A stretch of 64,000 nt of DNA from Eledone cirrhosa (taxonomy: Eukaryota): NCBI GenBank assembly GCA_964016885.1, contig OZ024741.1, forward strand, positions 389,112,001 to 389,176,000, in the 5' to 3' direction. Below are positions 5,681-58,629 of the stretch, in pieces; position 1 is the stretch's first letter, and each line of letters begins with the position of its first letter. The notes beneath the pieces are model-generated. The model did not search any database and was not told where the DNA came from. It was given only the letters and a program-made list of their open reading frames with translations. The translations under genes and the position numbers were made by a program.

Positions 5681-5780
5681 ATGGCTGATGGAGAAACTTA
5701 TAAACCACAATGGAATTTGGTAGAGTTCACATTGCTCTCGATATTTCCTATTCATCTTTCATTTCTTCATATACACAAAG
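5681..5780 (+). CDS. SLC6-like coding exon 1: MADGETYKPQWNLVEFTLLSIFPIHLSFLHIHK (exon probably starts at 5538 with 5'UTR)
   Basis: Acceptor tttttttctttgcag at 5537, ATG at 5681, donor AAG|gtatgt at 5781. Phase 1 matches exon 2. W..VEF resembles the SLC6 N-terminal W..K(V/I)(D/E)F motif. Confidence 0.72.
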
Positions 5781-11700: not shown

Positions 11701-14700
11701 GTTGTTCTATTATCCGACAGGGGGCGTGAGGCGTCTTACTACAACATCAATGAGATTTGAAGGCAACAAATTGATAGAGTTTTTAGAGCATTGAATTAAA
11801 TGACTTGTGATATTTGTTCTGGTTCTCTAGACTCTTGGTTCAAAACTCACTGAAGTCCACTTTGGCTTTCATCTTTTAGGATTAAGTACCAGTTCAGGAA
11901 TTGTTAAAGCATTGATCATGAGGCCATGCAGTATCTCTTTTTGCCCTCTGCATTCTGAGTCCACCTGCAGCATCACTGGTGCCAAGCTGTATCAGCCCTT
12001 GCCTTTCTCTTGGTCAACATAGGTAGCAGCGAGAGGGGAGACTTGTATACATTGACAGTTGCTGATCTTTCACAAAAAAGCAAACCTTGACCAGAGAAAA
12101 ACTTTCCAGTTGCAGATTCATAGTCTCATGAGACATATGGATGCATCAGAGTATGATTTGAGGAAATTTGTCTCCTATTTCTAGCAGTTTTTACATAGGA
12201 TAGTAGGAAGTATTGTAACAACTGAAAGCTGCATTCAATAATCTACGATTTGGTGCCTCAAAGTTTTGAGTTCCTATCTTGCTGTTGTTGACTTTCTTTT
12301 TCTTCATGCTCAAAAAATTGATTACACATTATATACAGGAGCCAAATCAATCAACTTCTTTTCTTCCTCCTACAAAAATTGACTTTGCGTCTAATGAAAA
12401 GAAATCACTAGTGATGCTATAAATAATCTTGTCTAATGTAATGTTGTTGTTATTGTTGTTCTAACTGTTTTATTATAAACAAATTAAATGGTGATTTGTT
12501 GGTAGTCATTACACCTTAAATTCATTTTCTTTTCTTTTCAGATTTGTCAGTGATAATTCATTTCATATTTTTAACAGTCCTTTGTATTCCCCCCTTGTTT
12601 CTACAGCTGAAATTAGGGGGGCACTTACAAAAAGGAATTGTGGGGATGCTCTCAACCTATTTTCCTATCTGGAAAGGTAAGCTTATTATTATGAACTATT
12701 ATCAACATCATCATTATTGGCAGTATCGGTAGAGGGCCGGACGCTATGCTTTGCAGCACAGAGTTACGCCCTTTTATGATCTGAGTTCAAATCCCGCCAC
12801 GGTTAACTTTGCCTTTCATCCTTACGAGGTCGATAAAATAAAGTACCAGTAATGCACTGGGTAATTGCTGGCCTTGTGCCAAAAGTAGAAACAATTATTG
12901 CATGGCAAAAACAATAATGAACAAAATATTTGCTTACATACCTCTATGTTCTCATTCCTTTTCTAGAGGCAATATATTAAGTACCAGTCATGTACTAGAT
13001 TAATTCAATTGATTATAATATTACTTTACACCAAAATAAATGGACTTATGCCAGTGTGAGTTATAATTTTCTGACGTTTCCTGTTATGGAAGCATTGTGC
13101 TTCTAAAAATTGTGCTGTAATGCAGAATTCCATAATACAAAACCTATTTTCCCATTGATTTTCATGTTATAAATTAAGATGTCTAACAAAATTTGACATA
13201 AACTTTCTGCTTGCGGAAAACTTGTAAATTCACAGGTACAGGCTGGTTTTATGTTTTTCCTAACAAAATTTATAGCTGAAAGTTTCACTTCATCCAACTA
13301 TGTTTTCTGCAGCATTTATATTATTTAACTTTTTTCGGGGTCTCTAACTGTAGGTTTATCCTTTTATGAGTTGTTTCCAATTACTTCTTATGAGAATTAG
13401 AAGTCCTAGCAGGCACGCACTTCCAGGAAAACCCAGTTTTATCAACATTATATACTTGTTCTGGTGTAGAGTTTCCTTCAGTAATCATTTTCCTCTGTTC
13501 CTCAGTATAATTAGTAACAGTGTCTGTATCAACACTGGTCGCTTTACTGGTTATTTTAATGTTGTGCAAACTAAAACATATCCTAAAACTGTTAAACCAG
13601 CCTTTATTAACCAGAAAAATGTTTGCAAACTTTTAGCTTTCACCAGAATAACCAGTCAGATCTATGAAAAATACCTGAGAAGTTAACTGAGTAGGTACTT
13701 GAGCACTTGAGCTAATTCTGTCTTACAAGTTAAATCAATGCAGGTACAAACAATATTGAGGGAGAATGATAGGTATTGGGATTGGTAGGATTTGAATATA
13801 TATGTGTGTGTGTTTTTTTTTTTTTTTTAATTGCTCAAATTTACCTGAGTTTCTAAAAGTGCGGAATTACAGACGGTATCCAGAAATTAGTGGTCTTACT
13901 TTACTATTTCCATAAATGTGGAATTCCGTATTGAAATGAAAATTTAAAAAAATTGTTCTTATAAACAGCCTTTTTAAATAAGTCTGTTATTTTTTCAAGG
14001 ATTTCTTTTTAACAAATCAACTGTAATATAAAAAATTTCAAGTTTGGCAAAAAACCCAAATTGTTTTCTGTGTACAAACATTTTGTAGCTGTTAGATTTT
14101 CTTGTCAAATTTCTAATTATTTTTCAGTATAATATTTTTTTCCTCTAAGCAATTTTCCCTATAATTCTTCTCAAATAATTAATAGCACTTTTGTGGTTTT
14201 AAAATGTGCTATCTGTTTAATTATTTTTAGAATTTAATTTTTCATCATTTACACTACAGTATAACAAATTAATGATTTTGGTGGTTTTATAGTGGACTAT
14301 CTAAGAGATAAAGGCTAAGAATTTAAATTATTTTCAATCTTGCTTTGCTGTCTTCTAATTTGTCAACTCTTTGATCATTTCTTCTGAGAAAGATTTCAGG
14401 TCTTTCATCCAATCACTACTAGCTCATTTTAACCTAGTTGTACTAATTACCAACCACACACTGTTCAATCACTGAAGCAGTTCGATCCCTGTCTTTATTC
14501 ACTAATTTTATTTAGTTTTCAGTGTTGTATTCAAATTTCCCCATGAGTAAAATGGGGTCTAGAGACTACACAGAACAGATATTTTACAATTGGTGTTTTT
14601 ATTATCTGAAGAATTATAAAACTAAATTCTTTTTATACTGAACACTTTTTTTTATTTATTAACCTGAAAAGACAGAGCCATTTTGACCCATCTAGATAGA

Positions 14701-17700
14701 AAACTTTTATTGTATTATTTTAATTGTATATCTTCCTAGCTGTTTGAATAAAGATTCTTTGTGAACCACAAATACAGAAAGTATCCAAATTTTGTTTGAA
14801 TTTACAAACCCTTGTTGCTATACTATTATTGCTCACAGTTTGCATTTGATAACCACATTTAATAAACAATTTCTTTCAAATGATCATTATTGCAGTGAGA
14901 TTTTATAATGAGATTTGGGAATTGTTTCCATTGTGACATTGTATAGTTAATGTAATTTAAAATTTGGTTTCACAATCAGTCTTTTTAAAATGCTAATATA
15001 CTTCTATTGTTGCAAAGATTACACTTCTATTGAATTGTTGCCAATTTTCTTCCCTTGAGAAAAGCCATTTTTCTGTTGTTGTTGATAGATTTTTTAATTC
15101 CTCCCCAATCTCTATCATTGAATCACACTTTATTTTTAGTTATGTAAACTTACAATTTTGCAAACATTTTCTCGTCGTTGAGTCAATAGTAATTAAGTCC
15201 TAGCTTTTTATTTCTCCTGCTTCCTAACTATCGGCATACAAAATCTCATCTTTACCAAACACATCATTCTGCCTTCATACTTTTCATGTTTTCTCTACTA
15301 ATTAAACATTACAAGTATCCACATTTCCATATAAGTCTCATAACTGTCAGTTCTTATCAGATTCTCAATACTTATGATCTGGTTATTCTACCTTGTCTTT
15401 TGCCATGATTAGTTATAATCCATAGTATTATTGTCAATTTAACTGATGGGCAGAATAAGCTTTATTCTAGAAAAATACAATTTATGTTAATGTGGGTTAC
15501 CTTTTGCATGCATATTTTGGTTGTTATTGTTCTGGTTGTATAGTCTCAGGTTAAGCTTAATCCAGCAGACCTATGATGAAAAACATTCCAACTGAGAAAT
15601 TCCCATTCTCCTGGCCTATGCAGTGTAGTGTCTAGGACTATATTGACTAACATTTCTGTCAATTTTTAAGAGAACATGGTGAGATTTGAGGGAGACTTTA
15701 ACAAGTCTAGTGACTTGAAGAGGTGTAAGCCAATGAGCCAATGAAAACATTTATATAAAGGGCAGTGGGAAGTGCCTGTAAGGTGGGGCAGTGTACCATC
15801 TCTGCTGTGAGCCAGTATTTGGGCTGTTGTGATGTCCTTGCCTTTATTTTCTCTGGAGGATGACCTTGCTCTAGTATACCATAATTTGGGCATAGTGTCA
15901 CGTAATTATGGCTTAATTTAAACTAAGGTGGTGAATTGGCAATTATTAAAGCATTGGATTAAAGGACATGGTATTTGTTTCATCTCATTATGCTCTTTTG
16001 AACAACTTTTGAAACTTTTATGCATTTTTAAAAAATGTAATGTACAGTGTATTTTGTTTCTTTTTACTTCTGCAGGTGTGGGTATTGCAGCATTAGTGCA
16101 TTTAATGTTAATTTGTATATACCAAGGTCCTGTTGTAGCAGAGGTGGCCAGTTATATGTTCATATCTGTAGCCCAGCAGCCATATCTATGGGGAACCTGT
16201 GACAATTCATGGAATACAAATTTTTGTTCCCCAGGTGTTGTAAGGTAAATTTCTTTTGTGTATGTATGCCTGTATATGTTCTATTTTATATATTAACTCT
16301 ATAGTATTTATTTTATACCATAACAGACATAGTTGATTGGTTAAGAAGTTTGCTTCTCAATCACATGTGTCTGGATTCAATTCTAATACAGACAGCACTT
16401 TCAGCAAATATTTTCTACTATAGTTTTAGGTGAAATTGTGAAAATAAAAACAGTTTGGAAGCTTATCACTCTTTTCTACTATAGTTTTAGGTGATATTGT
16501 GAAGATAAAAACAGTTTAGAAGTTTGTCACTCAGTTCTACTATAGTTTTAGGTGAAATTGAGGAGATAAAACAGTTTGGAAGTTTGTCCCACAGTCTCAT
16601 GATCAGTTGGCCTCAAAATTACAATTGTTTGTAGAATACTCAGCTACTTACACTATAATACAAGGAGTGGGTAGTCTTGTTTACTGAACAATTGGAACAT
16701 TCTTTGTCAAATCAAAATCAAACCATTTATTATGTCTTCAAGGTATGTTGTTTACAAGCCTGTGGTATTTTCATTGGAACATTGAAAGCTACTTTAAAAT
16801 GTGCTAGTTAAATATAGCTCTAAAACATGATGTTCGTAGTTTTTTACCTTTTATATCACAATTGCATTGCATGATGTTCTTCCCCAATGTCCTAATTAGT
16901 GCATCACAATAATTCTATCACATGTTGATTAGTGGTTTCATCAAATGAAAGGTGCTATAAACAACAGCCTCAAAGAAATCAATATTTCATAATGAACACT
17001 GTATTTTTTCTTCCCTACTACTTATATTTAAACATTATTGTTATTTTTTTAGTGACCTATTTTTCAATTTGTTGCAGTTCTATTACTGGTTTGCCAGAAA
17101 TGACAAAAAGATCAGCATTTGAATTCTATACGTTAGTATTATTTCTTTCTTAACTCTACTTTTTTTCTGTAATCCATTAATGACATTTTTATTGTTTTAT
17201 TTTTTAACTTTTTTTAACTTTTCTACATAGTTCACATGCAGTTATTTTGTTATTTTTCTCATAATTTTTAATTAATTTCCTCTTCTTTATCTTGTTGAAT
17301 TATCTTACAGGATCATCTGACCTAAAGTATTTGAGTACTCTTGTTTATTACAACCTTTTTAGTGAGGAACCAACAGATTTGAATGTCAATTACAAATTTC
17401 AATTGATATATTTAAAATACTCTATACTCCTCAGTTTAGAAAATACTTTATGTACATATATCTATTTTGAGGTGTATTTTGGATGAATTTATGGGTGTGA
17501 AGTTTTAAAAAAATGAGTACATGTTTCAATAAAGCAACTTGTTTTGTAAATTGATGTTTGTTTCAGGTTAGAATTCTGGCAGATGACTAATGGTATTGAT
17601 CATGTTCATGGATTCCCACATTGGAGATTCACAGAGACAGTCAGTCGGATGACCGTACCAATGTTGCCTATTGCATCTGCATCAGTCTGGCTCCTTGTAT

Positions 17701-18263
17701 TATTGATGGTAGCACTTGGAGGACGTGTCTTTGGATGGGTGAGTACCTTTTTAGTTCTGACTACTTCCTTACTCAATCTAACTTACTTATTGAAATAAAT
17801 AGATTTCCTCATTAGCATGACAACATATTTCTTCATTCCTACAACCAATACGAAGTCATCAATCATATAAATAGTATTAGTTACACACAATTTCCAGAGA
17901 AAGTGATTTACAGGCTTAATTATTCATCCAATAAAATAATTTTACTGTAATAAATTGCTACTTTATATATTAGCATCAAATAGAATATCTGATACTGAAA
18001 CTGCTCATTTTCTTTTATGTATTAATATATAAGTTCTGGTATGGGTAATGATAGTAATAATAATATTAATAGTTTGTGAGGTTTTTTTCCTTTTTGGTGG
18101 GGGTTATTGTTGTTGTTGCTACTATGATTATAAAACATGAAAGTGATCTTTTCATCATTATTATCCTTGTGGCCAAGGTGTTTTTAAGTATACTAGACCA
18201 TCATCATCATTATCAGTCATCAACATTTTACATGTGTTCCATGCTGGCATGAGCTGGAATAAA

Positions 18264-18311
<48 letters not shown>

Positions 18312-24300: not shown

Positions 24301-26141
24301 CTTGTTTATTAATACATAGTTATCATTTGAATGAGATATGTCAGTTCTATGGGTGTTTTCTGTGTGTAATTACATACAAACATTGAACTTAGTAAACCAA
24401 AATTTCCTGGATCATGGGTCTCTCTCTAATATTCTCCATTTAATATATAGAAATTTCCTTCATGATTATCAAAAAAATGTGGGACACAATATGGCTAAAT
24501 ACTTAAGAAGTTCACCTCAATCTTTAGGTCCTGGATTTGATTCCACTGTGCGGCATAATGGGCAAGTGTCATTTACCATATCTTTGGGTTGACCCCTGTA
24601 ATTCAAAAGGCCAGCTTTGTCACATACTGTGAGATGCTCAACTACTTACACAGTAATTTCACAAGCAGGTTGTTCCATTGATCTAACAACAACCATCATC
24701 TCATTGGGATTTTTTTATCCCATCTAATTAAATTTTCTTAATCAAAACCTTATATATACTTGTTTTACTCTCCACTGGTTAAACCTTACTTTAATCCAGT
24801 GTTTCCCAAACTATGCACCACAAAATTTAATTAGGTGCTCTGCGAAAGAGCAAGATTCTATTTTAAAATGTGAAAAATACAAATTGAAATTAATGGCTAA
24901 CTTCATATATAACTGTCAAAGTGGAAAACAACTAAACTAAAAATGAAAACATTTCCAAAAAACATCAAACACGTGTTTCTCAAAGATTCTTCCATTTATT
25001 GACTAGAGAAGAAAATAGAAATAAATTTTTTGTGTATTTTTAATTATCTATATTTCTACTTTATTCTATGTTAATGTGTATAAATAGCTCTTGAATAAAT
25101 TTTTGAATTTAGTTTTAAAATGCACCAAAGTATTTTACTTGTTCTAAAAAGTACCAAAATATATATATATATATATTTTCATTCTAAAGCGTGCTGTGAG
25201 TAAATAAAAGGAGGAAATTGTTTCTTTTCTTTTGGGTGGGGGTGGGAGCATGCTACCGAAATTATCGACAGGAAAAATTTTAACTCCAAAGAAACCTCTA
25301 CTAAAAAACTTTTTTTTCTCTTCCTTTTTTTCTTCTTTTACAATTCCTTCAGAAATCCATTCTTTGTACACCCCCAAAGGGCCCTTTTCAATAATGTTTA
25401 TACCTATATTTGTATTTATTTTATTTCCCTTATTCTTGCTTTTATCTGCAAACCCTAAAAATAATCTTGATCTATTGACACAAGGGTATCCCACATAGAT
25501 ACACACACACCACAAGATAAAAGAAAAAAATTATATCAAGTCTTAGCTATTTTCACATACCCTTAAAATAACATTTTGACACAAACATTTGCACAATTGA
25601 ATCTCACCTAAATGTACATACACAATAAAAAATATCATCTGGATTGATATTATAAATATTTAAAGAATTTTCTATTTTAATCATGGGGATTTTCAAGTGA
25701 ATTCAATTAAATCCTGACCTGTTGAACCCCACTTCCTCCTTCAACACCTCCACCTTCATGAAAAACATATATATAAGAAGAAATTTTGACAAAAAATTCA
25801 CATATGTTCTAATTGCCACAGAATATGAGAACAAACTTTTTAAAATATTTGTTAAGATTAATATACTAATTATGTTGGTACCACAACATCCAGTCCGAAA
25901 TAAATGAGGTCGTGTAGGTGTCACGACAAAAAAAACACACAGTCCACGCTGTAATGTGGCCGTGTAGGTAACACGGTAAAAACCTCCCAGTCCACACTGT
26001 AAACGTGGTTGGTGTTAGGAAGGGCATCCAGCCGTAGAAAACCCGCCAGACAGTCCTATACGAGCAAGACAACCAATCTTGCCTCAAGTGGGAAAATTCC
26101 CGTCCAAACCCATGCAAGCATGGAAGATTGACGTTAAACGG

Positions 26142-26172
<31 letters not shown>

Positions 26173-30847: not shown

Positions 30848-30887
<40 letters not shown>

Positions 30888-39800: not shown

Positions 39801-39813
39801 CTTTGATAGACTA

Positions 39814-39852
<39 letters not shown>

Positions 39853-39894
39853 TCCCACCCTTGCAAGCCAGGAAAAGCGGACGTAAAATGATGA

Positions 39895-39938
<44 letters not shown>

Positions 39939-42900: not shown

Positions 42901-45742
42901 GGATTGGACATCATCGTCCATCATCACCATTGTTTTTACATCCACTTTTCTATACTGATATGAGTTGGACAAGAAATTTTTGAGACAGTATTCTACAGCT
43001 GGATACTCTTCCTGACATCAACCCTTACTTGGTTTTCAAGCAAGTTACTGATCTTTGCATGTCAAAACCCCGACCTACAAGACATTGTTTGTGTGGGACA
43101 TAAACAAATGCCACCACCTGGCATTATAGTACCATTAAATACCACAAAACTCACTGGATACAGAAGGCTGCTTCAAATCTATCACTTATAATATAGAATT
43201 ATGTTTTCTGTGATTCAGTTGGAGGGGGGGGGGTAGGACCTCTTGGTAAATACCATAACTAACAGCCTCTCTAATCAGCGCCACTAATAGCTAACATCTT
43301 GAATTTTATTGTGAATGAAGTACTTTTGTTTGTTTTTTCATATATAAATAATATCAAAATCTCAGATTCAATATTATGTGAGATATTATGTAAGGGTTAA
43401 GACACTTCAAATTAAGGGTGTATTTTAATACACCCTTAATTTGAAGTGCCTTAACCCTTTAGCATTTACATTACTCTATATTTACTATTGTATTTTCGCA
43501 GTAAAGTCTTTATCTTATATAATATCTCACATAATATTGAATCTGAGATTTTAATATTATTTATTTTGAGAACAATACCTTAACCTAAACATGAGTGGCT
43601 AGTTACAGCCAGTTTGAACAGAAAGAGGTGAGGGAATTCTGCTGGCCGGTTATGACTGGGTTAAACACCAATAAATATGGTTTCACTTTTGAACTCTGAT
43701 GACTTCTATATTTTTCTATTTGCAGGTTATCCTCTCATTTTTGATACCATGGCTACAGCCTTCAGCTATTTGCGCATCCCACCTGCATATGCCTTGTTAT
43801 TCTACCTCTCCATTTTCTTATATCATATTCTATTTCTGGTAAGCCATTTCTTCACAAGCAATATGTTTATTCCAATTTTTTGTTTGAGAATTTAGTTTGA
43901 AAAGGAGTAAGTTAATGTCTATTTCTTAATGTGATTCTTCTTCTTCTTTATCTTTTTTCTTTTTTTTTTTTCTTTACCTTTTCCTTTTTCTTCCTCCTCC
44001 TCTACAACTGTCTCCAAATGGATCCACAAAGATCCCCAAATGAGACCAGCCAAGCTTATAGATGTCATCTAACTATCTTGTTTATTGTCTATTTCTGTGT
44101 TATTGTTTAACCCTAGGTCAGACCTGATCATGCAAAGGTGTTCTAACCATTTATGCCAATATGTAATTCATTAAGAAAATAAGGTGTGATTTGAAGTAAA
44201 TTCAGCTGCCTGATTTAGCCGAGGAAAAATCTTAAAACACTTATAATATCATGCAACTATTTAAATTTCTAGTTTGGTTATACAACTACATTTAGTGGGC
44301 TTGTAAAGTCATTAGTTATATATTTGAGTTGATGTGGTAAACACAAATTGTTGTTTGTACCAGTTGCATCTTTAACAACACTTCTCATAAACAGTTTAGA
44401 TAAACTGTTTAGATAAATCACATCTCATTAAAAACAAGTATTCATTTCTTTGACAAAGATAAAGCACTTAGATTAGAATAATAACATCTTGATTGAGTCT
44501 ACATGCAACCTCTCTCATAAACAATACAGCTAACTTCAGACCATTCAAAACTCCACCCTTTCCAACTCTGATTAGGGAATTGCTCACAAACAAATCTCTT
44601 TGTCTCTCTATATTTCTCTTTCAGTTTCTTTCTCTCTAATCATTTCCTCCTCTGCCCCCTTCTTTCACTCTTAGACAACTTAGAAATCACATGACTATAT
44701 GCTTCAACAAGCACTAATATAACAGAATTCTGAAATCTTTGTCCCTCTTCTTAAAAAAATCAGTATCAATCTTTATCCTTCCTCTCAGCTAATTAATCTT
44801 TCATTTGATACACTAACAACAAGTGTTTTAAGGCCATTTTTTCCTACTAAAGAAGAGGTTAACCATACGTGGGCTACATGCCAAGGTTCCCCATTTTGTC
44901 CTATTATCTACGTTTTCCTCCACCAGTACTCTGACTTTCATTTCCTTTTCTGTTACTCATCTTTGTCTCTATTCATAGATTTTTATTACAAAATAATTCT
45001 TTAGTAGTTTTTAACAACTCTGTAATTTAAATCTTTCTGATTTGTACTGATGGTTTTTAGAAATGCAAATTAAATGAATTAATTATGGTAATTACTTTGT
45101 TACTTTCTACAACAGGCAGAGAGAAAAAAAACATAAATAAAAACATTCCATCCACCTTGACCATAACCAAAGAATAATTAAACCGATAAATAAATAAATG
45201 CTACATCGTAGTGATTGTTTCTCTCCCTTCTCTCTTTCCCAGTTTCACAGTCTGTGAGAACATATCTATATATACACACAGTTGTCTCCTGGTATTCGTG
45301 GCATTAGAGCACCTACGAAGAGTGAAAAACCACACATATTGGACATGGTCCATAAAAATGCCTATAAACGTCAAAACATAACGTAAAATATAGGCCTGCA
45401 AATACAATATATTGTTATTAATAATTTAACGTGAAAAAATATATATTGCCAGGAAAAAAGCCATAAAATAATCGCAGAAGATATTTACAATTTCGCGAAT
45501 ATGCAGCGGTTTTCACGGACAATCATTAGTCAGGTTCTAAGGAAAATTCCATGAATAAGCAGGACCCCGAATACTAGGGGTACACTGTATGTATATATAT
45601 AGTGGTTACCTCCGATTCAACCCGGAATAACTTATGAAACAGTTCTAGTCCTGTAGAATCTCATCTATATTAAAACTTTTATACTCTGCTATGTATTGAG
45701 TACCTTACTTACTGTGGTTACCTCCGATTCAACCCGGAATAA

Positions 45743-45783
<41 letters not shown>

Positions 45784-48700
45784 CAATATATATATACGTC
45801 ACCATCGTTTTTACATCCATTTTTCCAAACTTGATAGGTTGGACAGGTCATTTTTGGCACATCTTCTCTCCACTCACCACGTTTCTTCAACATCTCCTCT
45901 GAGTCTCAGCTTCCATCCACTAGCATTTCCTGGCATTTTATTACCTATCAATCATCATTCATACACATCACATGTCTGTACCAACACATTTTTCGCAAGC
46001 AAATGGCCCGACAAAGCCATTCTGTTCAGATGAGCAATCATCATCCACTTGTTCAACAGTGGCATCGAGGAGCAATCAACATGTTTCCGAGTCACTACCT
46101 TTCATCAGGACCGTCCACCTCTCTGCCAATCTGTTGAACAGTTGAAAACATAGCACCTTCTGAATGGAATATTATTGTTACTGTTCGACGTAGCCCATAC
46201 TTGCATATGTGTATATATATGCAGAGGATATACGCAGACTAGAGAGGAACGAAGCTTGCATGCTCCGCTGGATGTGTAATAGTAACATACGTGAACGGCA
46301 AAGCATAAACGAACTAAGGAAAAAATTAGAAATAAGAGGGATCAGATGTTTACTCGAGAGAAGGCTACATTGGTATGGTCACGTGATGCGCATGAAAGAC
46401 GACAGCTGTATAACAAAGTGCAGGGCAATAAAGATAGACAGTAGCCACGGAGTAGGCAGACCCAGAAAAACCTGGGACGAGCTGATAAACTCCGACCTCA
46501 CACACTTACACCTCTCCAAGACAATGTCACTGGACCGAGACCTTTGGCGGTACTCAGTAATAGAGAAGACCCGCCTTACCTAAATACAAAGTAAAACCTA
46601 CTACAGTCAGTAGGCATCTCTAACAAAATACACCCCCACCCCATCCACACCGCCCCTTTCAATGTAAAGTTATGTTGGTGCCACAACATCCAGGCCGAAA
46701 CAAATGAGATCGTGTAGATGTCACGACAAAAAAACACACAGTCCACGCTGTAATGTGGCCGTGTAGATAACACGGTAAAAACCTCCCAGTCCCACACTGT
46801 AAATGTGGTTGGTGTTAGGAAGGGCATCCAGCTGTAGAAAACCCGCCAGACAGTCCTATGCGAGCAATGACAACCACTCTTGCCTCAAGTGGGAAAACTC
46901 CCGTCCAAACCCATGCAAGCGTGGAACATGGACGTTAAACGATGATGATGATGATGATGATATATGTGTGTGTGCGTATGAATGCTTACAGTTATTATTG
47001 TTGGTTGCTAAAAACAGCCCTAACCAACTGACCTAAGAAATTCAATATATTTGTTATTGGAATGGTGAAACTAAATCTGACCAATAAGAAGGAGGTGAAT
47101 TCTACTGATGCTTGAATTTGTTCATTCTGAATCATATGCCACCATGGGTTGGATGGGTCCTTTTCAGCACAGGTTGTGTTCCTTCGTCATCTTCTCTGTG
47201 AGTCTCTGATTTTAGATCAGCCCTCACTATCTCTGCCCAGGTCTTCCTTGGTCTACCTCTACTATGGCTTTCTTCTACTGGGATTTTCTGGCACTTCTTC
47301 ACCCAGCGATCATCATCCATGCACATCACATGTCCATACCAATGCAGTTTTCTCTTTTGTACACCACTTTGGATTCCTCTTAAGCACACTTCCTCCCTCA
47401 GCTCATCCAAGTTCTGCCTTTCTCTCACATTTACATTGCATATCCAACGAAACATGGTTGCTTCATTTCTCTCCAGTCTATACATGTTCTCTGCAGTCAT
47501 TACTCATGTTTCACTGCCATGCAGCATCGCCCTTTTCACAGAGGCATCATTGAGCTGTCCTTTTGTATGTAGGGAGAAACCTTTTGTTGTCAACTGTGAG
47601 AGTATCTTTCTAAACTTTTTCTATCCTATCCTCATTTTAGCTATTATATACATTTATTTTGCAGTTATTTTATCAACTTGCATAACAGTATTTCTGAAAC
47701 TGTTCTCATTTCAGTGTGTAGCTATCCTGACTTTGGTGGACAACATAATGGAATCCCTGATACCATGTTTGGAGAGAAATTCCATTAATAAAACATTCAT
47801 CAATGTTGTTGTCACTTTTCTTGTTGTTGGTGTTATCAATGCTTTGGGAGTTCCACACACCACAAATGTGAGTATCATACTAGCTAGATGGCTTTCGTGC
47901 CTTTCATTCTTTCATAGACAATGAGATCGATTTAACTCTTAACATCTTGTACCACATGAAACCCTATTAGTATGATGTTCTCGAAAAGTACAAAACAGTA
48001 CTATGACGTTTAAAATTGAACTGTTCACTCTGATACTATAACTTTTCCCAATGATCTGTTCACTAGTAAAGATACTCTTGTTTTTAAATAATTTCTAAAT
48101 CATTACAGGATGTTGACCGTTAATTAACTATGCATACATCTAAATATCACTTCTTTCCTTACAAAAACAAATGTAACCAGATACCTATCTTAAAGATCAT
48201 CATTGTTGACTTTGCCTTTCATCCTTACGGGGTCGATAAAATAAAGTACCAGTAATGCAATGGGTAATTGCTGGCCTTGTGCTTAAAGTAGAAACAATTA
48301 TTATGAAATGCCAGGGGCGGTGAATTGGCAGTATCGGTAGAGGGCCGGATGCCATGCTTTGACGCATAGTTACGGCCCTTGCCTTTCTGAGTTCAAATCC
48401 CGCCGAGGTTAACTTTGCCTTTCATCCTTACGAGGTCGATAAAATAAAGTACCAGTAATACACTGGGTAATTGCTGGCCTTGTGCACAAGGCCAGCAATT
48501 ACCCAGTGTATAAACAATTATTATGAAATGCCATAAACAGTTCAAGGGTAATACCAATTTTATGTGGCTAATAATTCAGAATTGATATACAAATGTATTA
48601 TTTTTCTATTTGATATGAATAGAAAATATATCAAGTTTACTAGTCATTTAGAAAATATTAGAGTAATAAGGAATAGAATGTTATGTTATGTAAAACTTGT

Positions 48701-51700
48701 CTATCCAGTTGCTACTAACATTGAAACATTCATAGTTTATGTTAAATATGCAAGACTATTTCTTTTGTCATCCCCAAATATTTGTTATTAAAATGGAATT
48801 TAAGAAGCAGCAAATTGACCGAGTCATTACGATGTCTGAGTAAATGCCTCTGTATTTGTCACAGCTCACTGTGCTCTGAGTTCAAGTCCCAAATTAAGGA
48901 TCAGAATAAAATTTTATGAAATGCACATTTTTCCTGATGTAATTTTCAAATTGCTAGTTGTTACAGCAAATGAATTTATTGTACAACTGTAGAAGCCAGC
49001 AGTCTTTCATCTTTAGTAATTACTAATTCCATTGTTCTCTTTGTTTGGTATTTAGGCTGGACCCTACTTCAATACCCTAATGACTGTTTCATTGGAGCGG
49101 CTGGTATTCTTGGTGGTAGTCCTCACTTTTATTGGACTTATTGTGGTCTATGGTAAGTCATGGCAATTCCCACAGATAATTTTTTAACACTTTTCTTACC
49201 ATATTTCTAATGAAAGACACTACATATAATTTTCAAATCATTTGAAAATAATCAAGAATTTGGAAGGATTTTATAACATAACTAACTTTTTCATTATTCA
49301 TCATCATCATCATCATCGTTTAACTTCTGCTTTCAATGCTAGCGAGAGTTGGACGGGTCTTTATAGACCAAGTCAGTACTGAAACGAGGTTACTGACCTC
49401 CCAGACAGATCAAGGGGTCTGTATCTTGCTTATTTATAATCATGCATTCTATTGAATGCAAATGAGAAGTTATCATGTCTTTTAACACAAACTGAAAGGG
49501 TCCTTCCAACCTCTTGTTTAGCAAGCTTTCTATGGTTGGATGCCCTTCCTAACACCAACCACCATTATTATAAATATAAATATAAAAGGGCGGTGGATTG
49601 GCAGTATCGGTAGAGGGTCGGACGCCATGCTTTCCAGCTTAGTTACGTCCCTTTACGATCTGAGTTCAAATCCCGCCGAGGTTGACTTTGCCTTTCATCC
49701 TTACGGGGTCGATAAAATAAAGTACCAGTAATGCACTGGGTAATTGCTGGCCTTGTGCCTAAAGTAGAAACAATTATTATAAATATAAACACTTTAAAAG
49801 AAAACAGCTTGGTATCTTAGAACCTGAGGTGGTTTGGTAGGAAAAGGATTAAACAGTATATTCTGAAATAATATTTTCACTACCACTAACCCTTAAAACC
49901 ATGGATTAGATAGGTGTCTTCAAGAATGCAAGTATTATTACATCTATATTGAGTTCCAGAGATGTTTAATTGAAGTAAAAGTTTTACAAGTTTTAAAAAT
50001 GTACCAGTATGTTTTTTGTGTGCTAAAAATATACTGTTACGTTATTTTAACTTTCCACCCCATGTGTGCCAAAAACATACTGGTACATTTTCTTACCTCC
50101 TGCCCCTAATATCTCTTTTATATTATTTTTACCAATTTTTTGAAAATTGCAAAATGTAATGTATAATCCTGGCATGTAATCGCACCAGTACTCAAAGAGT
50201 TAATAATAGTCCCTGGCTCAATCTCTTTAAAGAATGCTCCAAAAGGTTTTATAAAATGCAGTATGGTAGGTAAAGAAAGCAAACCAATTATAACAAAGAG
50301 GATGCTTTTCTTGTTTATGATAATTTGAGTAATTATTCTCAAACTAATCTGTAATGTACTGTATTTGATGTCAAAATCTGCCTGCAGTCTATACACCAAA
50401 GATATGAATACATCATCATCATCACATAACATCCACTTTCCCTGCTAACAGGAGTTGGACAGGCCTACGTAGACCAAATCAGTACTGAAGTAGGGCTACG
50501 GACTGCCCAGACAGGCCAACAGATCTGCATATACAAAAGTTGTACATAAATAGAGATTTCCTAAACTGTTTTCTTCAAAATAAGGTTGCATGTTATATAA
50601 CAAAAAATATAATTAATTGTTATTAATAGTCATAAAAGATATTTGTTTTTGACAAGATTGTTATAAGGAAATATTTTTATTATATTTTCCTTATATAAAA
50701 CACCATGTTATAAAAATAAGTTTTACTGAACTGTATCCCCCACAACCATATCCCTTTTGCTGCTAAAACAGTCAAAAGATGTGTAAAGACAGCCTACTCC
50801 CATTACACCAGAGCTACAGAATTGGAAATGTTATGCCTGTGTAACAAATTATATCTTCATGATTATATTTAATTTTTACTGACTATTAATGTGATGCTAA
50901 TTATTAAGCGGAAGCACGTGGCCTAGTGATAAGAGTGTTGGACTTATGATCATAATGTTGTGGGTTCATTTCCTGGACTAGGTTGTGTGTTGTGTTCTTA
51001 AACAAAACACTTCATTTCACTTTGCTCAGTATACTCAGCTGAAAATGAATACCAGCAATAGCTGGGAGTTTTAATCTGTGATGGACTGGCACCCTGTCCA
51101 GGGGAGAGTCTTGTACTGTCAATTGCTTAACACTATAGAAACCAGGATAAGCACCAGGCTTGAGACAGATGTTAGACTTTTTAAATTATTAATGTTGTAT
51201 AATTGACCATCGTTTATTTGCTTTGTTTTATCTAGTTTTATTTATTTATCCATTTATTTGTACAGCAAAGCAGAACTTTTCATTAGCTGAACGCATCATG
51301 ATGGGTGTTTGGTTTGCCCTGTCCTGTCTGGCAACTGCTGTAAGTGAATTTCAACTATTTCATTTTCATACTTTTTTTTTTTTTTTTAATTCATGAATAT
51401 CATTTTTTCTGTGATTTCGTGTGAACACGTAGGGTTGTTGACTGCATACGTAGCAGAGTTCAAAGGGTTAAAATAGGACTAACATACTTCATGTAGTGAT
51501 CCCTCAAAAACGAAAAGAAAAAATTGTTAGCAAATAAAATTACATTCCTACTTAAAATAAAAATCATTAACGTCCCCGATAATTTTGATCAAAGGTAAGG
51601 GAGATAAGTCCGAAATTCAAATAGATTTTAAAACTCGCCAGAAGGAATCACATGAGAAATTTCTCCTGTCATTATTTTAACTGATGGATTGGCAGTATCG

Positions 51701-57700: not shown

Positions 57701-58034
57701 TGAAGAGTCTTCCCAACACTTTGTTTCCTAAGTTTTTTATGGCTGGCTGCCCTTCCTATCATCATATAATATTTCTAAACTGACTCTCTAATGTGTTTTG
57801 ATTTAATTTTATATTCATTGGAATATAAAACACACAGTCCACGCTGTAATGTGGCCGTGTAGGTAACACGGTAAAAACTTCCCAGTCCACACTGTAAATG
57901 TGGTTGGTGTTAGGAAGGGCATCCAGCTTTAGAAAAGCCGCCAGACAGTCCTATACGAGCAAGACAACCAATCTTGCCTCAAGTGGGAAAATTCCCATCC
58001 AAACCCATGCTAGCGTGGAAGATGGACGTTCAAC

Positions 58035-58065
<31 letters not shown>

Positions 58066-58474
58066 TGCAGATTCAGAGGAAGAAAGTGTCAACTATGTTT
58101 ATTATATTGCAATATATTACTGTATTTCACAACATGCAAGTCACTGGGTTTTTTTCTTCTCCAAAATAAGCCTGGGAGATTTAGCAACTCAAAATTGGGG
58201 TGTGTTTACAATGTTAGACTGTCTTTGACACTTGGAAATACAATATGTTGTTTAAGTATATATAATAATTTAATTCTTATAAATATGTGATGTCTCTGTA
58301 TTTCAGCGTTTCCTCGGGACATTCCAGGAGTCTTCAAGACAATCCCGCTTAGACAATGGAAGGACGTACCACCGCGCTGAGCCCAGCGCCCCTCCATATG
58401 TCTACATGGACGGAGATGCATTTCCCTTGGATCACTTACCATACAAGTCAGACCCAGACCTAAACCCATTGTGA
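5681..58474 (+). CDS. Divergent SLC6/NSS-family (sodium:neurotransmitter symporter-like) membrane protein, 14 coding exons, 599 aa
   Basis: Manual join of 5681-5780, 12542-12676, 16076-16244, 17078-17131, 17567-17738, 26804-26965, 28576-28682, 41626-41750, 43726-43838, 47715-47867, 49056-49152, 51266-51339, 55886-56056, 58307-58474 gives 1800 nt with no internal stop. All introns are GT-AG with matching phases. SLC6-like segments include IPPLFLQLKLGG...PIWKGVG (TM2/IL1), WGTCDNSWNTNFC (EL2 disulfide), SAFEFY, GIDH, and the 135/125/113-nt exon sizes I recall from SLC6 genes. Confidence 0.88.
5960..6520 (-). mobile_element. R4/Dong-clade (RLE-type) non-LTR retrotransposon remnant
   Basis: Minus-strand translation gives WAWLKKSDLKVRTEALICAVQEQ, VHWELC and LIDIAVPGD, the C-terminal region of R4-clade ORFs; frameshifted. 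Confidence 0.7.
6620..7450 (-). mobile_element. Decayed Tc1/mariner transposase remnant
   Basis: Minus-strand KRPDLWHTKNWILHDNNTPCH followed by a degenerate HPPYSPDL-like segment and a GDYFE-like end; contains stops and frameshifts. Confidence 0.72.
8271..8383. mobile_element. Small hAT-like MITE
   Basis: Terminal inverted repeats cagggctggattta ... taaatatggccctg; weak 8-bp TSD. Similar termini occur at 27003-27826. Confidence 0.5.
8498..10802 (+). mobile_element. 5'-truncated RTE-clade LINE (RT domain, frameshifted, internally deleted)
   Basis: ORFs 8462-9736 and 9823-10506 contain NYRGIKL, QFGF, FVDLEKAFDRV, GVHQGSVLSP, LYADDL, LHGSETW and RWYGHV; (GAT)n tail at ~10790-10802. Confidence 0.95.
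11155..11282 (+). mobile_element. 5'-truncated SINE family A copy
   Basis: B-box, core and tail essentially identical to the young copies. Confidence 0.8.
11308..11743. mobile_element. Solo LTR (Gypsy-like)
   Basis: Starts TGTGGTAA and ends TTACTACA (7/8 inverted match); flanked by a perfect 4-bp TSD ACAT (11304-11307 and 11744-11747). Confidence 0.75.
12542..12676 (+). CDS. SLC6-like coding exon 2 (TM2-IL1)
   Basis: ttttcttttcag acceptor; LSVIIHFIFLTVLCIPPLFLQLKLGGHLQKGIVGMLSTYFPIWKG; donor gtaagc; 135 nt, phase 1-1. Confidence 0.9.
12716..12899 (+). mobile_element. SINE family A copy
   Basis: tggcagtatcggtagag head, B-box, core and tail. Confidence 0.85.
13280..13720 (-). mobile_element. 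pogo/Tigger transposase remnant
   Basis: ORF 13381-13569 contains PEQVYNVDKTGFSWKCVPART, resembling the pogo DDE motif PEQIFNADETGLFWK. Confidence 0.7.
16076..16244 (+). CDS. SLC6-like coding exon 3 (TM3 and start of EL2)
   Basis: cttctgcag acceptor; VGIAALVHLMLICIYQGPVVAEVASYMFISVAQQPYLWGTCDNSWNTNFCSPGVV; donor AG|gtaaat chosen because phase 2 matches the next exon. Confidence 0.9.
16410..16590. repeat. Tandem repeat, ~3 x 60 bp
   Basis: Unit ttctactatagttttaggtga(a/t)attgtga..ataaaaacagtttggaag occurs three times. Confidence 0.85.
17078..17131 (+). CDS. SLC6-like coding exon 4 (EL2, 54 nt)
   Basis: ttgttgcag acceptor; SITGLPEMTKRSAFEFY resembles SP..EF(W/Y); donor gttagt; phase 2-2. Confidence 0.82.
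17567..17738 (+). CDS. SLC6-like coding exon 5 (EL2 end and TM4)
   Basis: gtttcag acceptor; LEFWQMTNGIDHVHGFPHWRFTETVSRMTVPMLPIASASVWLLVLLMVALGGRVFGW; donor gtgagt. Confidence 0.9.
18310..18640 (-). mobile_element. RTE 3'UTR-only insertion
   Basis: (CAT)n tail, catgctagcatgggttagac terminus, ggatgcccttcctaaca motif, internal ~40-bp repeats; bounded by (TA)n on both sides. Confidence 0.75.
18664..19052 (-). mobile_element. RTE LINE 3' fragment (subfamily with short 3'UTR)
   Basis: ORF 18678-18974: RRLRWYGHVMRM...GRPRKTW; (CAT)n tail; TA tracts on both sides. Confidence 0.9.
19290..19790 (-). mobile_element. RTE 3'UTR fragment with an expanded ~40-bp internal tandem array
   Basis: About 7 copies of accaccttacagggtggac(c/t)gg..gctttttgt at 19486-19790. 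Confidence 0.75.
19907..20124 (+). mobile_element. SINE family A copy (longer-tail variant)
   Basis: Head, B-box and core, plus tail ggggttgatttaatc...gcctaaatcagaa. Confidence 0.8.
20129..20510 (-). mobile_element. Probable solo LTR
   Basis: Minus strand starts TGTGGTAAG (same terminus as the 11308 LTR) and ends TATA; flanked by the 4-bp direct repeat CCCT (20125-20128 and 20511-20514). Confidence 0.6.
21550..23190. mobile_element. Decayed, rearranged L1/Tx1-like LINE
   Basis: The + strand carries an APE-like LVGDWNGILD motif (~22345). The - strand at 22530-23185 carries ORF2 C-terminal-like SLAWQCYRGA/PVRDKL and HLKRKFKVER. Confidence 0.55.
23200..24090 (+). mobile_element. R4/Dong-clade non-LTR retrotransposon 3' fragment
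   Basis: AQEQAL, HIVSKCKHLA, VHWHLC, YEHKPESVIEN and LIIDVACPFD (RLE) motifs; ends in a (TAA)n tract at 24055-24088. Confidence 0.8.
25873..26171 (+). mobile_element. RTE 3'UTR-only insertion (same subfamily as 35575-39810)
   Basis: Closely similar to 46670-46960; (GAT)n tail. Confidence 0.85.
26238..26421 (+). mobile_element. RTE 3'UTR fragment (subfamily of 8498-10802)
   Basis: Matches 10612-10800. Confidence 0.8.
26804..26965 (+). CDS. SLC6-like coding exon 6 (TM5-EL3)
   Basis: Long pyrimidine tract plus cag; ILAIVTPIAVSCTLVVLGYGLARLDQEPTKEMLKIIFTMPDFEPSLFTSEDIFT; donor gtaagt; 162 nt, phase 0-0. Confidence 0.88.
27205..27600 (-). mobile_element. Another RTE-like LINE 3' fragment; a related copy lies at ~41200-41500
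   Basis: Shared gccagttggttttgcct.taaaatctg; the 41214-41432 ORF gives QILQAKPTGKRPMGRPRAKWLDNI. Confidence 0.6.
28576..28682 (+). CDS. SLC6-like coding exon 7 (TM6)
   Basis: attttccag acceptor; KCMSSFVHIQMALPLWFGIAPTMGKMTGFGKIHKN; donor gtaagt; phase 0-2. Confidence 0.85.
28790..29068. repeat. Tandem repeat, ~3 imperfect 80-120-bp units
   Basis: ggttccgctgt.agaagggttcggcatggccaactggcctgtcc.tcctcata..agtgc occurs three times. Confidence 0.75.
30167..30417. mobile_element. TTAA-flanked MITE family 2 (piggyBac-type ends)
   Basis: ttaa|ctctttt ... aaaggg|ttaa; homologous degenerate copies at ~1790, 2280, 3295, 29070, 40540, 49183 and 63340. Confidence 0.6.
30855..30950. repeat. (CT)n/(CCCT)n microsatellite
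   Basis: Visible directly in the sequence. Confidence 0.95.
31612..32342 (-). mobile_element. RTE LINE 3' fragment
   Basis: Antisense of the RTE C-terminal coding region; (CAT)n tail; closely similar to 53409-54198. Confidence 0.88.
32614..32806 (+). mobile_element. SINE family A copy
   Basis: Full head-to-tail copy; flanked by the direct repeat ttatttatatcaatgat. Confidence 0.85.
32958..34275 (+). mobile_element. 5'-truncated CR1-clade LINE with a duplicated 3' end
   Basis: KAFNSVPHKRLLAKL, SGVPQGSVLGP, KYADDI, ERDLG, MVRPHLEFASPVWNPY, TRGH and FFTLRV..WNKLP motifs; (ATT)n tail. Confidence 0.9.
34440..35085 (-). mobile_element. Fragment of a distinct RTE-like LINE family
   Basis: GLRMNETKTKY, VESVLLYGSETWTL, RLRLAGH and RRGRP motifs (ORFs 34508-34876 and 34831-35082). 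Confidence 0.8.
35091..35429 (-). mobile_element. RTE 3'UTR copy nearly identical to 10478-10802
   Basis: The ORF track shows nearly the same peptide at 10461-10736 (-) and 35173-35460 (+). Confidence 0.9.
35575..39810 (-). mobile_element. Near full-length RTE-clade LINE (APE endonuclease + RT + inserted PHD-type finger), inactivated by stops and frameshifts; 5' boundary uncertain (39150-39810)
   Basis: APE motifs GTINVGTL, CIQETRW, SAYAPQ, AGDLNGHVG, QVDYIL and SQHRLL; RT motifs through LYADDL and FRYLG; (CAT)n tail at 35575. Confidence 0.95.
39851..39898 (+). mobile_element. Minimal RTE 3'-terminal insertion inside (TA)n
   Basis: catcccacccttgcaagccaggaaaagcggacgtaaaatgatgatgat is the reverse complement of the RTE terminus at 18666-18712; TA tracts on both sides. 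Confidence 0.8.
41626..41750 (+). CDS. SLC6-like coding exon 8 (TM7-EL4)
   Basis: ttccag acceptor; TWLLMIVMYGVFWMLPTLTMAPYLGNLIQKSQAILSDVPLS; donor gtatgt; 125 nt, phase 2-1. Confidence 0.88.
41867..42076. mobile_element. piggyBac-type MITE family 1, copy 1
   Basis: TTAA|CCCTTTAACATT ... AATGCTAAAGGG|TTAA. Confidence 0.8.
42497..42716. mobile_element. piggyBac-type MITE family 1, copy 2
   Basis: TTAA|CCCTTTAGCATTC ... GAATGCTAAAGGG|TTAA; internal sequence homologous to copy 1. Confidence 0.85.
43451..43664. mobile_element. piggyBac-type MITE family 1, copy 3 (opposite orientation), with a partial copy at 43345-43400
   Basis: TTAA|CCCTTTAGCATT ... GGG|TTAA; reverse complement of copies 1 and 2. 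Confidence 0.78.
43726..43838 (+). CDS. SLC6-like coding exon 9 (EL4-TM8)
   Basis: atttgcag acceptor; YPLIFDTMATAFSYLRIPPAYALLFYLSIFLYHILFL; donor gtaagc; 113 nt, phase 1-0. Confidence 0.88.
46219..46961 (+). mobile_element. RTE 3' fragment nearly identical to 35577-36327
   Basis: ORF 46209-46583 is almost the same peptide as 35962-36288 (-); (GAT)n tail. Confidence 0.92.
47135..47645 (-). mobile_element. Older RTE 3' fragment ending ~70 nt before exon 10
   Basis: ORF 47132-47500: LERNEA...WYGHV...GRPRKTW. Confidence 0.85.
47715..47867 (+). CDS. SLC6-like coding exon 10 (TM8 end to TM9)
   Basis: catttcag acceptor; CVAILTLVDNIMESLIPCLERNSINKTFINVVVTFLVVGVINALGVPHTTN; donor gtgagt. Confidence 0.87.
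48205..48521 (+). mobile_element. Two tandem SINE A copies; the second has TSD attattatgaaatgcca and a palindromic 3' rearrangement
   Basis: Partial copy at 48205-48302, full copy at 48315-48521. Confidence 0.85.
49056..49152 (+). CDS. SLC6-like coding exon 11 (TM10)
   Basis: tatttag acceptor; AGPYFNTLMTVSLERLVFLVVVLTFIGLIVVY; donor gtaagt; phase 0-1. Confidence 0.87.
49588..49779 (+). mobile_element. Young SINE A copy with TSD attattataaatataaa
   Basis: Full-length copy with a direct repeat on both sides. Confidence 0.9.
50908..51175 (+). mobile_element. tRNA-derived SINE family B (second copy at 60888-61150)
   Basis: A-box gtggcctagtg, B-box gggttca; body gtgttctt..caaaacacttcatttca...ctgtgatggactggcaccctgtccagggg shared with the 60888 copy. 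Confidence 0.75.
51266..51339 (+). CDS. SLC6-like coding exon 12 (IL5-TM11)
   Basis: ttgtacag acceptor; KQNFSLAERIMMGVWFALSCLATA; donor gtaagt; 74 nt, phase 1-0. Confidence 0.83.
51683..51876 (+). mobile_element. SINE family A copy (older)
   Basis: Head, B-box and core present. Confidence 0.75.
51918..52110 (-). mobile_element. Young SINE A copy, antisense, with 15-bp TSD tccagtcattataat
   Basis: Its reverse complement is nearly identical to 49588-49779. Confidence 0.9.
52521..52700 (+). mobile_element. SINE family A copy
   Basis: Head, B-box, core and tail present. Confidence 0.85.
53246..54365. mobile_element. hAT (Charlie-like) MITE carrying a nested RTE fragment
   Basis: TIRs CAGAGGTTCTCAAA ... 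TTTGAGAACCTCTG; 8-bp TSD gtctagtg / gtctagta. Confidence 0.8.
53409..54198 (-). mobile_element. RTE 3' fragment nested in the hAT MITE
   Basis: ORF 53485-54051: IEVVDSFWYLGD...LHGSETW...RWYGHV; remnants of the Cys-rich insert at 54090-54195. Confidence 0.9.
54432..54725 (-). mobile_element. RTE 3' fragment
   Basis: ORF 54447-54725; (CAT)n tail. Confidence 0.88.
54846..55581 (+). mobile_element. Non-autonomous Helitron with an internal 3 x ~92-bp tandem array
   Basis: A|TCTATAAAGC 5' end; subterminal GC hairpin cccgagcaacgccggg (55554-55569); CTAG|T 3' end; no TSD. Confidence 0.72.
55886..56056 (+). CDS. SLC6-like coding exon 13 (TM11 end to TM12)
   Basis: cttcttcag acceptor; GIWVYKFVHGQDELNYKGSVYSETWETISWIVSGVPFVFVLVGAIHAIMVGRGPCCQ; donor CAG|gtatat. 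Confidence 0.88.
56588..57015 (+). mobile_element. RTE 3'UTR fragment with internal repeats
   Basis: Repeated cccagtccactctgtaagg motif, gaagggcat..agctgtagaaaacc motif and gatgat tail. Confidence 0.7.
57826..58064 (+). mobile_element. RTE 3'UTR-only insertion
   Basis: Closely similar to 25930-26171; (GAT)n tail. Confidence 0.85.
58307..58474 (+). CDS. SLC6-like terminal coding exon (cytoplasmic tail containing PSAPPY)
   Basis: gtatttcag acceptor; RFLGTFQESSRQSRLDNGRTYHRAEPSAPPYVYMDGDAFPLDHLPYKSDPDLNPL, then TGA at 58472-58474; GC-rich relative to the flanks. Confidence 0.82.
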   Translation, partial: RFLGTFQESSRQSRLDNGRTYHRAEPSAPPYVYMDGDAFPLDHLPYKSDPDLNPL

Positions 58475-58629
58475 AGGAGAGTTTATACTGAAATTCCAGC
58501 TGACATCACATCTGGACAATAACTATTTTCATTTTCTTCTTCACAACTTGCTGCTATTAAACGTGACAACAACACCAGCAGCAACAACAACAACAATAAT
58601 AATAGTCATTATTCTTATTATTATCATTA

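Follow-up and report, generated by a model that had tools for sequence, protein, structure and literature searches.

The stretch of DNA analysed here, called the window throughout, comprises 64,000 nucleotides of Eledone cirrhosa contig OZ024741.1 (assembly GCA_964016885.1, positions 389,112,001 to 389,176,000 of the forward strand). It carries an intact gene of the SLC6 family in which the residues for ions, substrate and most of the gates are replaced.

Structure of the gene and its product

On the + strand of the window, 14 exons join in frame from an ATG at 5681 to a TGA at 58474, giving 1800 nt, that is 599 amino acids and a stop codon. The exon model was obtained from splice-site scans compared with database proteins, and its introns are GT-AG in 13 out of 13 cases. 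A previous description of this DNA from its letters alone (hereafter the sequence-only reading) had proposed an unbroken 599-residue frame over 14 exons, which this model bears out. The five motifs that it quoted were found on the + strand at 16120, 16198, 28579, 43821 and 49074, and the disulfide that it saw kept in the second extracellular loop corresponds to C120 and C129, both encoded by exon 3. The features of the gene are listed below (TM, transmembrane helix; EL and IL, extracellular and intracellular loop; pLDDT, predicted local distance difference test).

5681..5780, +, exon 1 (residues 1-33): short N-terminus, W11 and remodelled TM1; the intron follows codon 33 in phase 1, as in canonical paralogues
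5744..5776, +, TM1 residues 22-32: former Na1, Na2 and substrate segment with the outer gate Arg; now P23, H25, S27, H30 and H32
12542..12676, +, exon 2 (135 nt): TM2-IL1; H40 at the position of the chloride-site Tyr; clade residues Q55 and K57
16076..16244, +, exon 3: TM3 with Q95 (formerly the gate Tyr), P97 and E101; EL2 cysteines C120 and C129
17078..17131, +, exon 4 (54 nt): EL2
17567..17738, +, exon 5: EL2, TM4 and IL2
26804..26965, +, exon 6: TM5 and EL3
28576..28682, +, exon 7: TM6 with H272, M275, A276, P278, W280, K289 and M290
41626..41750, +, exon 8 (125 nt): TM7 with W302, Y309 (formerly the Na1 Asn) and W313 (formerly the chloride Ser)
43726..43838, +, exon 9 (113 nt): EL4 and TM8 up to the former Na2 site, with H375, L377 and F378
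47715..47867, +, exon 10: inner half of TM8 (L384, D388, N389, E392) and TM9
49056..49152, +, exon 11: TM10 with T440 (formerly the outer gate acid)
51266..51339, +, exon 12 (74 nt): IL5-TM11, reduced in length, with E471 and R472 as clade residues
55886..56056, +, exon 13: EL6 and TM12 (H533)
58307..58474, +, exon 14: cytosolic tail and stop codon; pLDDT below 50 across most of residues 563-597
[quoted passage not shown]

The product is shared by other cephalopods. Searching with exon 13 retrieved two clusters of 599-residue proteins, whose members include records from Octopus vulgaris/sinensis, O. bimaculoides and Argonauta, which bear the automatic names taurine or proline transporter-like, and one cuttlefish record. 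The window protein differs from P0003 (O. vulgaris/sinensis) and from P0006 (O. bimaculoides) at 16 of 599 positions each (97.3% identity, no indel); it is 96.8% identical to P0001 and 86% identical to the second, decapodiform cluster, again with no indels. Six Logan proteins of this second cluster are encoded on contigs of 2.7-3.1 kb, too short to hold a 53-kb gene, and thus represent spliced transcripts of relatives that use the same exon set. A candidate exon at 52369-52437 and a longer exon beginning from an acceptor at 51236 were rejected, as the orthologous proteins use neither. The register of exon 8 is fixed by an exon of a canonical paralogue (locus L012) of equal length and phases. 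The gene is apparently single-copy: in a paralogue search of its own genome, for which the stricter first look was used, 6/6 matches fell inside the window. Three listed sequencing runs compared with 41400-58700 gave matches resembling genomic contigs, with no exon-exon joint among the matches listed, and have no bearing either way.

Upstream of the start codon, a possible exon at 707-754 matches 10 of the first 16 residues of a longer O. vulgaris model (P0005). The interval 5538-5680 is another possible upstream exon, with one acceptor ahead of 5538 and a second immediately before the start codon.

Family membership and predicted fold

Searches and structure predictions were run with P0001 as a stand-in, the 19 differences of which from the window protein miss all 28 positions considered below as functional. 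P0001 matches PF00209, the profile that the sequence-only reading had suggested searching, with 67.2 bits against a cut-off of 27, over positions 41-518 of the 524 in the profile, and 7/7 further members of its clade also pass the cut-off. The best matches among sequences of solved structures were BGT1, TauT, GlyT1 and dDAT, at weak E-values, and the nearest Atlas clusters by features were SNF, mostly from arthropods. The gene is real and conserved, and by sequence it belongs to the SLC6 family.

Two models were computed, one from an 18-row alignment (predicted template-modelling score, pTM, 0.80) and one from 75 rows including canonical proteins (pTM 0.90, mean pLDDT 89). Superposition, also suggested by the sequence-only reading, gave a complete SLC6 fold, with Z 38.8 to SERT (6vrh; root-mean-square deviation, rmsd, 2.7 over 519 residues) and Z 35.8 to dDAT (rmsd 2.9, 502 residues). 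The models predict the 12-helix fold of neurotransmitter:sodium symporters (NSS), the preferred one with breaks in both TM1 and TM6. TM6 is unbroken in the 18-row model and broken at 277-282 in the preferred 75-row model, which also breaks TM1 at 20-21, although the canonical rows in its alignment favour such breaks. An early view that TM6 was an unbroken helix, and the protein consequently rigid, came from the 18-row model and was dropped after the second one. The borders at codons 33, 78, 152, 210, 264, 299, 341, 430 and 487 recur with equal phases in canonical SLC6 exons of the same genome, as delimited by a rough automatic exon caller on loci L001-L030. These recurring positions and phases anchor the alignment register independently.

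A mollusc-wide orthogroup within a spiralian clade

A word-based search returned 24 clusters with E at most 1e-20 among 8000 scored candidates, 14 of them named and all from bivalves and gastropods; a word-based profile search returned the identical 24. Full HMMER gave 705 matches at 0.001, 148 at 1e-10 and 22 at 1e-30, and it alone reached more distant members. Among the 150 matches listed, 64 score higher with the clade profile than with the outside profile, a count that contains 15 training rows and many fragments. Thirteen distant members are full-length, and the 12 named ones are all spiralian: a chiton, Lineus, two Lingula, Owenia, Capitella, Macrostomum, Cichlidogyrus, Fasciolopsis, and a second mollusc paralogue from Haliotis, Mya and Magallana.

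From 86 new rows of 450-950 residues we assembled a 73-row alignment (14 orthologues, 14 distant members, 45 others); P0057, P0078 and P0101 were omitted from the tree, and P0057 and P0078 from the tables. Most outside rows are nameless, and the labels monoamine-like and ine-like were assigned from motifs and from the name of P0077. In the resulting 70-row tree, the phylogeny that the sequence-only reading had called for, a single branch separates the 27 clade rows from the outside SLC6 rows (SH-aLRT, Shimodaira-Hasegawa-like approximate likelihood-ratio test, 100), and the 14 mollusc orthologues are grouped within the clade (98). A 38-row quick tree under a mixture model agrees, the clade branch being 0.97 long. 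Both trees are quick, unrooted searches, and in neither does the clade group with the ine-like, taurine, proline or monoamine subfamilies, although its branches are long. Derived residues point the same way. When the 27 clade rows are set against the 44 outside ones, Q55 is found in 26, W280 in 23, W302 in 24, K289 in 21, D388 in 21, N389 in 22 and H533 in 23, each against 0, and the clade rows have deletions in common as well. The shared residues and deletions support a single origin, though long branches could attract.

As placed by these alignments and trees, the gene belongs to a single-copy mollusc-wide orthogroup within a long-branched spiralian clade that includes chiton, nemertean, brachiopod, annelid and flatworm members. 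The substitutions described below are accordingly not restricted to octopuses, and the clade is old and apparently undescribed. The coleoid stem branch is long (0.59-0.65) and is followed by slow change.

The second mollusc paralogue (P0040, P0045, P0049, P0053, P0069, P0074) is also degenerate and stands as sister to the nemertean P0041; two of its members have PPxY near the C-terminal end in place of P[ST]AP. No cephalopod copy of it turned up, no search having been aimed at one. Outside the clade, P0070, P0081 (Lineus), P0175 (Macrostomum) and P0181 (Trichinella) are partly degenerate SLC6 proteins with an altered TM1 or TM6.

Replacement of the ion, substrate and gate residues

The 28 functional positions were tabulated in 3 coleoids, 11 other orthologues, 13 distant clade rows and 44 outside SLC6 rows. 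At the Na1 site, to which we take the TM1 Asn and the TM6 Ser/Thr to belong together with the TM7 Asn, the octopod protein has S27, A276 and Y309. The TM1 Asn occurs in 36/44 outside rows and 0/14 orthologues, and the TM7 Asn position is Tyr or Phe in all 14. The Na2 site has lost its first TM1 Gly, deleted in 14/14 orthologues, and its TM8 pair of Asp/Thr and Ser, now L377 and F378, the Ser position being Phe or Tyr in 14/14. There is neither a chloride site nor an acid to substitute for it, since H40, H272 and W313 stand in place of the TM2 Tyr, the TM6 Gln and the TM7 Ser/Glu. In the substrate site, the TM1 Gly/Asp is replaced by H25 (an aromatic residue in 11/11 other orthologues) and the TM3 Tyr by Q95. 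Functional roles follow LeuT and are partly taken from PMC8310414, passages of which assign the TM7 Asn to Na1, and otherwise from general background.

Most gate residues are replaced as well. Of the outer Arg-Asp pair and the inner network only K8, W11 and E392 remain in the octopod protein, H30, T440, M290 and L384 occupying the other positions. The TM3 gate Tyr and the TM8 Glu are each found in 0/27 clade rows. Further replacements concern the TM2 Glu (Q55), the TM3 Trp (E101), the TM6 gate aromatic residue (M275) and the Ser of TM6b (K289), the Tyr of which has become M290; P278 and W280 are present in 14/14 orthologues. The new side chains are often bulky. In addition to deletions in EL1 and IL5-TM11, TM1 has lost its second Gly and seven residues behind the gate position. 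Of the 75 columns whose conservation outside the clade is 80% or higher, the octopod protein retains only 26.

Several of these replacements had been noticed in the sequence-only reading, and comparison with the 44 outside rows upholds its account of TM3 (Q95, E101), TM6 (M275, A276, the new P278), the TM7 Asn (Y309), the TM8 pair (L377/F378) and the TM10 acid (T440). Its statement that the TM1 motif is absent needs rewording: TM1 is present and can be aligned, and it is altered by two one-residue deletions, S27, H30 and the seven-residue deletion behind them. Our own first by-eye reading, in which the entire unwound part of TM1 was deleted, was abandoned after the alignment, in which the nemertean P0041 bridges TM1 residue by residue. 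The losses are real, but several are specific to coleoids rather than family-wide, and the distribution of residues implies that the ion sites were lost early and the outer gate later, in coleoids. That the chemistry of Na+/Cl- coupling is gone while the fold stays intact and conserved, the core of the sequence-only reading, is supported by the site table, the conservation test described below and the models. Judged by its residues, the protein should not be filed as a Na+/Cl- symporter.

Conservation and packing of the former pocket

Conservation of the 28 ion, substrate and gate positions was compared with that of the other TM positions. The functional positions stand out in canonical groups (0.94 vs 0.69 in 7 monoamine-like rows, p 3e-8; 0.88 vs 0.73 in 7 ine-like rows, p 6e-4) and in the 44 outside rows (0.72 vs 0.50), whereas the 11 non-cephalopod orthologues give 0.66 vs 0.66 (p 0.57). 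Overall divergence is similar, the pairwise TM identity being 0.52 in the orthologues versus 0.57 and 0.60 in the canonical groups. The side-chain volume summed over 18 core positions is 2824 in the octopod protein and 2503-2849 in the 14 orthologues, versus 2075-2481 in 42 gap-free outside rows; what tempers this result is that the figures are sums of standard side-chain volumes rather than a cavity measured in the model, and that position 280 was added after the alignment had been viewed.

The gene is under constraint: with amino-acid differences by region as the measure, the octopod and decapodiform proteins differ at 30/351 TM positions and 50/248 others. By the topology of the model, the derived polar residues of the clade would lie on the cytoplasmic side. 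The lost pocket conservation, the overfilled pocket and these cytoplasmic residues together point towards a protein that is retained for the sake of its fold and its inner face.

The cytosolic tail

The tails of 22 of the 24 clusters contain a P[ST]AP motif and, after it, Pro and an aromatic residue, with Ser in 11 and Thr in 11; the other two, P0033 and P0034, are truncated or mis-spliced models. Its columns have a conservation of 0.90, versus 0.45 and 0.60 in the flanks, and it lies behind TM12 in a cytosolic segment of low model confidence, hence probably disordered. Only 3/102 long full-HMMER rows carry the motif, all three from the mollusc orthogroup. The motif does not conform to a strict PPxY. 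The motif is the one through which HRS and ARRDC1 bind the UEV domain of TSG101, according to passages of PMC8402826, and a UEV-domain exon was found in the genome (72 bits; one exon only, from TSG101 or a relative). The tail is thus predicted to recruit ESCRT-I via TSG101 binding.

Histidines of the coleoid proteins

Seven histidines (H25, H30, H32, H40, H87, H272 and H375) are invariant in 10/10 coleoid records and absent from 15/15 other mollusc orthologues, as counted in alignment A2, from which 9 of the 27 rows of A1 were removed as near-copies or faulty models. His occupies four of the 28 functional positions, residues 8-540 having 16 His in all (hypergeometric p 0.007), and His accounts for 10 of the 102 novel residues fixed in coleoids, against a background of 1.7% (p 8e-6; 1e-3 at a background of 3%). 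The sequence-only reading had speculated that new histidines might indicate proton or metal involvement; the enrichment on former functional positions lends this some substance within coleoids, but the view of the histidines as a family feature was rejected, and their lack in the other molluscs implies that they are not the function or mechanism of the family. From their distribution, they are a coleoid addition.

Interpretation

The explanation that we prefer, to which we give about an even chance, is that the gene encodes an intact, single-copy SLC6-fold protein that is likely a non-transporting membrane scaffold sorted by ESCRT-I through its P[ST]AP tail. Bulky residues at positions 25, 280, 309 and 378 would fill the former ion and substrate space, while Q55, K57, K289, W302, D388, N389, E471, R472 and H533 would take the place of the inner gate and provide either a fixed, closed face or a surface for docking. 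The tail would then be bound by TSG101, and the protein, with whatever it binds, sorted into endosomal or shed vesicles. In coleoids, the histidines that later came to lie on the outer vestibule may in addition confer sensitivity to metal or pH. A broader version is more tentative, and we doubt that it holds in full: a spiralian-wide clade of SLC6 pseudo-transporters predating the split of molluscs, annelids and flatworms, with a molluscan branch turned into an ESCRT-I-recruiting 12-helix scaffold and a coleoid branch that built a metal or pH site out of His where the gate and the chloride site had died.

Several observations weigh against a scaffold, and some of them fit instead a carrier of some new substrate, ion-independent or proton-coupled, in which alternating access was kept, the pocket was rebuilt and the tail only sends the protein to endosomes or lysosomes. 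The TM1 and TM6 breaks that carriers use are kept in the better model, where the Pro at 23 and 278 fit them, and the modelled protein would conserve 12/12 helices with the close superposition on SERT given above. The non-cephalopod orthologues retain the outer gate Arg in 6/11, the TM10 Asp in 10/11 and the TM6 Ser in 8/11, and W11 and an acid at the inner-gate position (E392) persist. The new, invariant mid-membrane residues P97, P278, W280 and P316 could line a new site. Sorting motifs also occur on working transporters, and P[ST]AP is absent from all 13 more distant clade rows, so that it does not explain the origin of the clade. The sequence-only reading had left scaffold and carrier side by side; what speaks for the former is the loss of pocket-specific conservation among the orthologues and a pocket volume above that of all outside rows, and the kept helix breaks and gate pairs speak for the latter. 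Also against a carrier, the inner gate no longer has its TM6b Tyr and TM8 Glu. In Na+-independent LeuT-fold carriers, a basic TM5 residue replaces Na2, and no mid-membrane Lys or Arg occurs within residues 207-232 in the orthologues shown. We consider a carrier the main rival explanation, though unlikely on balance.

The histidines suggest a further, rather improbable explanation, a coleoid metal or proton sensor (or metal carrier) in which His25, His30, His40 and His272 would make up a Zn/Cu or pH site, its state being sensed at the cytoplasmic face. These four occupy the old substrate, gate and chloride positions, and in LeuT-type structures the gate Arg, the TM2 Tyr and the TM6 Gln lie next to one another. 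The statistics given above favour it, but the test was prompted by a remark in the sequence-only reading, the coleoid records are close kin, and the site is placed by sequence positions; in the other 15 mollusc orthologues these positions hold no His. That the protein is an ordinary Na+/Cl- symporter of taurine, proline or GABA type, the losses being alignment errors, would agree with the automatic names, the PF00209 match and the nearest SNF clusters. It is nevertheless very improbable, because intermediates such as P0041 bridge TM1, shared intron positions fix the register, few of the outside-conserved columns are retained, and a long branch separates the clade from all outside rows. A decaying pseudogene or an artefact of the gene model is scarcely credible: the junctions do derive from genomic DNA and from proteins of relatives, but the open frame, the GT-AG introns, the orthologues across molluscs and the identity to decapodiform proteins from spliced transcripts all oppose it.

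Relation to known proteins and to the literature

With SLC6/NSS symporters such as dDAT, SERT, TauT and BGT1 the octopod protein shares PF00209, the modelled fold, the EL2 cysteine pair and the positions and phases of introns. It differs in its low identity (15-19% in structural alignments), in the replaced Na1, Na2, chloride, substrate and most gate residues, in the TM1, EL1 and IL5-TM11 deletions and in the P[ST]AP tail. The insect orphan SLC6 proteins, which include Drosophila blot and bedraggled, are likewise described as divergent in TM1 and TM6; they were compared by description only, and the named distant clade members are spiralian in 12/12 cases. Silkworm SLC6-14/15/16 and CT1-L are such orphans, with divergent TM1 and TM6 and unknown function according to passages of PMC5085708. 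A precedent for an SLC6 role beyond uptake, likened here by description and not by sequence, is SNF-12 of Caenorhabditis elegans, presented in PMC7043892 as a protein of signalling: it traffics in the epidermis, and STA-2 activation requires it. Yeast Ssy1, a receptor for amino acids that arose from transporters according to PMC12958826, likewise puts a transporter fold to a non-transport role; it belongs to another family and still binds amino acids, whereas the pocket of the octopod orthogroup has no special conservation. The tail resembles those of HRS, ARRDC1 and viral late domains, as partly described, in its P[ST]AP motif, the interchange of Ser and Thr and the disordered cytosolic segment, but here the motif is attached to a 12-helix SLC6 fold and its binding is predicted only.

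No paper describing the clade was found in the literature covered, outside which most subscription journals lie, and a literature search by accession gave no relevant match. The text of 10.1101/301192 does not mention the clade, although its 503-protein SLC6 tree (in the supplement) may show the gene as a tip; the supplements of the octopus brain atlas (PMC9712504) contain 0 occurrences in 3 files; passages of PMC9815951 cover other slc6 genes only, and those of PMC5809530 and PMC3029318 do not describe the clade. Already known are the proteins themselves, filed in public databases with automatic names that mislead, and the existence of degenerate SLC6 orphans as a kind; apparently undescribed are the spiralian clade, the lost conservation of the pocket, the tail of ESCRT type and the histidines of coleoids.

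The gene bears on whether an SLC6 fold can persist without transport over hundreds of millions of years. The clade offers a graded natural series, from a nemertean with a near-canonical TM1 through bivalves with an outer gate to coleoids without one, and the tail motif is a directly testable handle. The names taurine, proline and GABA transporter given to these mollusc genes are probably mistaken, and studies of osmoregulation and neurotransmitters can be misled by them.

Other features of the window

Mobile and repeated sequences lie in and around the introns, among them fragments of the long interspersed nuclear element (LINE) type.

8462-10506, +, intron 1: fragment of a LINE-type reverse transcriptase, split over two frames (PF00078, 64 bits)
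36546-39182, -, intron 7: a LINE copy of greater length, interrupted by stops, that includes part of an endonuclease, a PHD-like Cys finger and a reverse transcriptase (111 bits)
53485-54078, -, and 47202-47600: short pieces resembling the same LINE family, one of them just upstream of exon 10
about 105-270, 1515-1690, 58640-58820 and 61900-62090: a repeated sequence of about 170 nt, seen by eye, that resembles a short interspersed element
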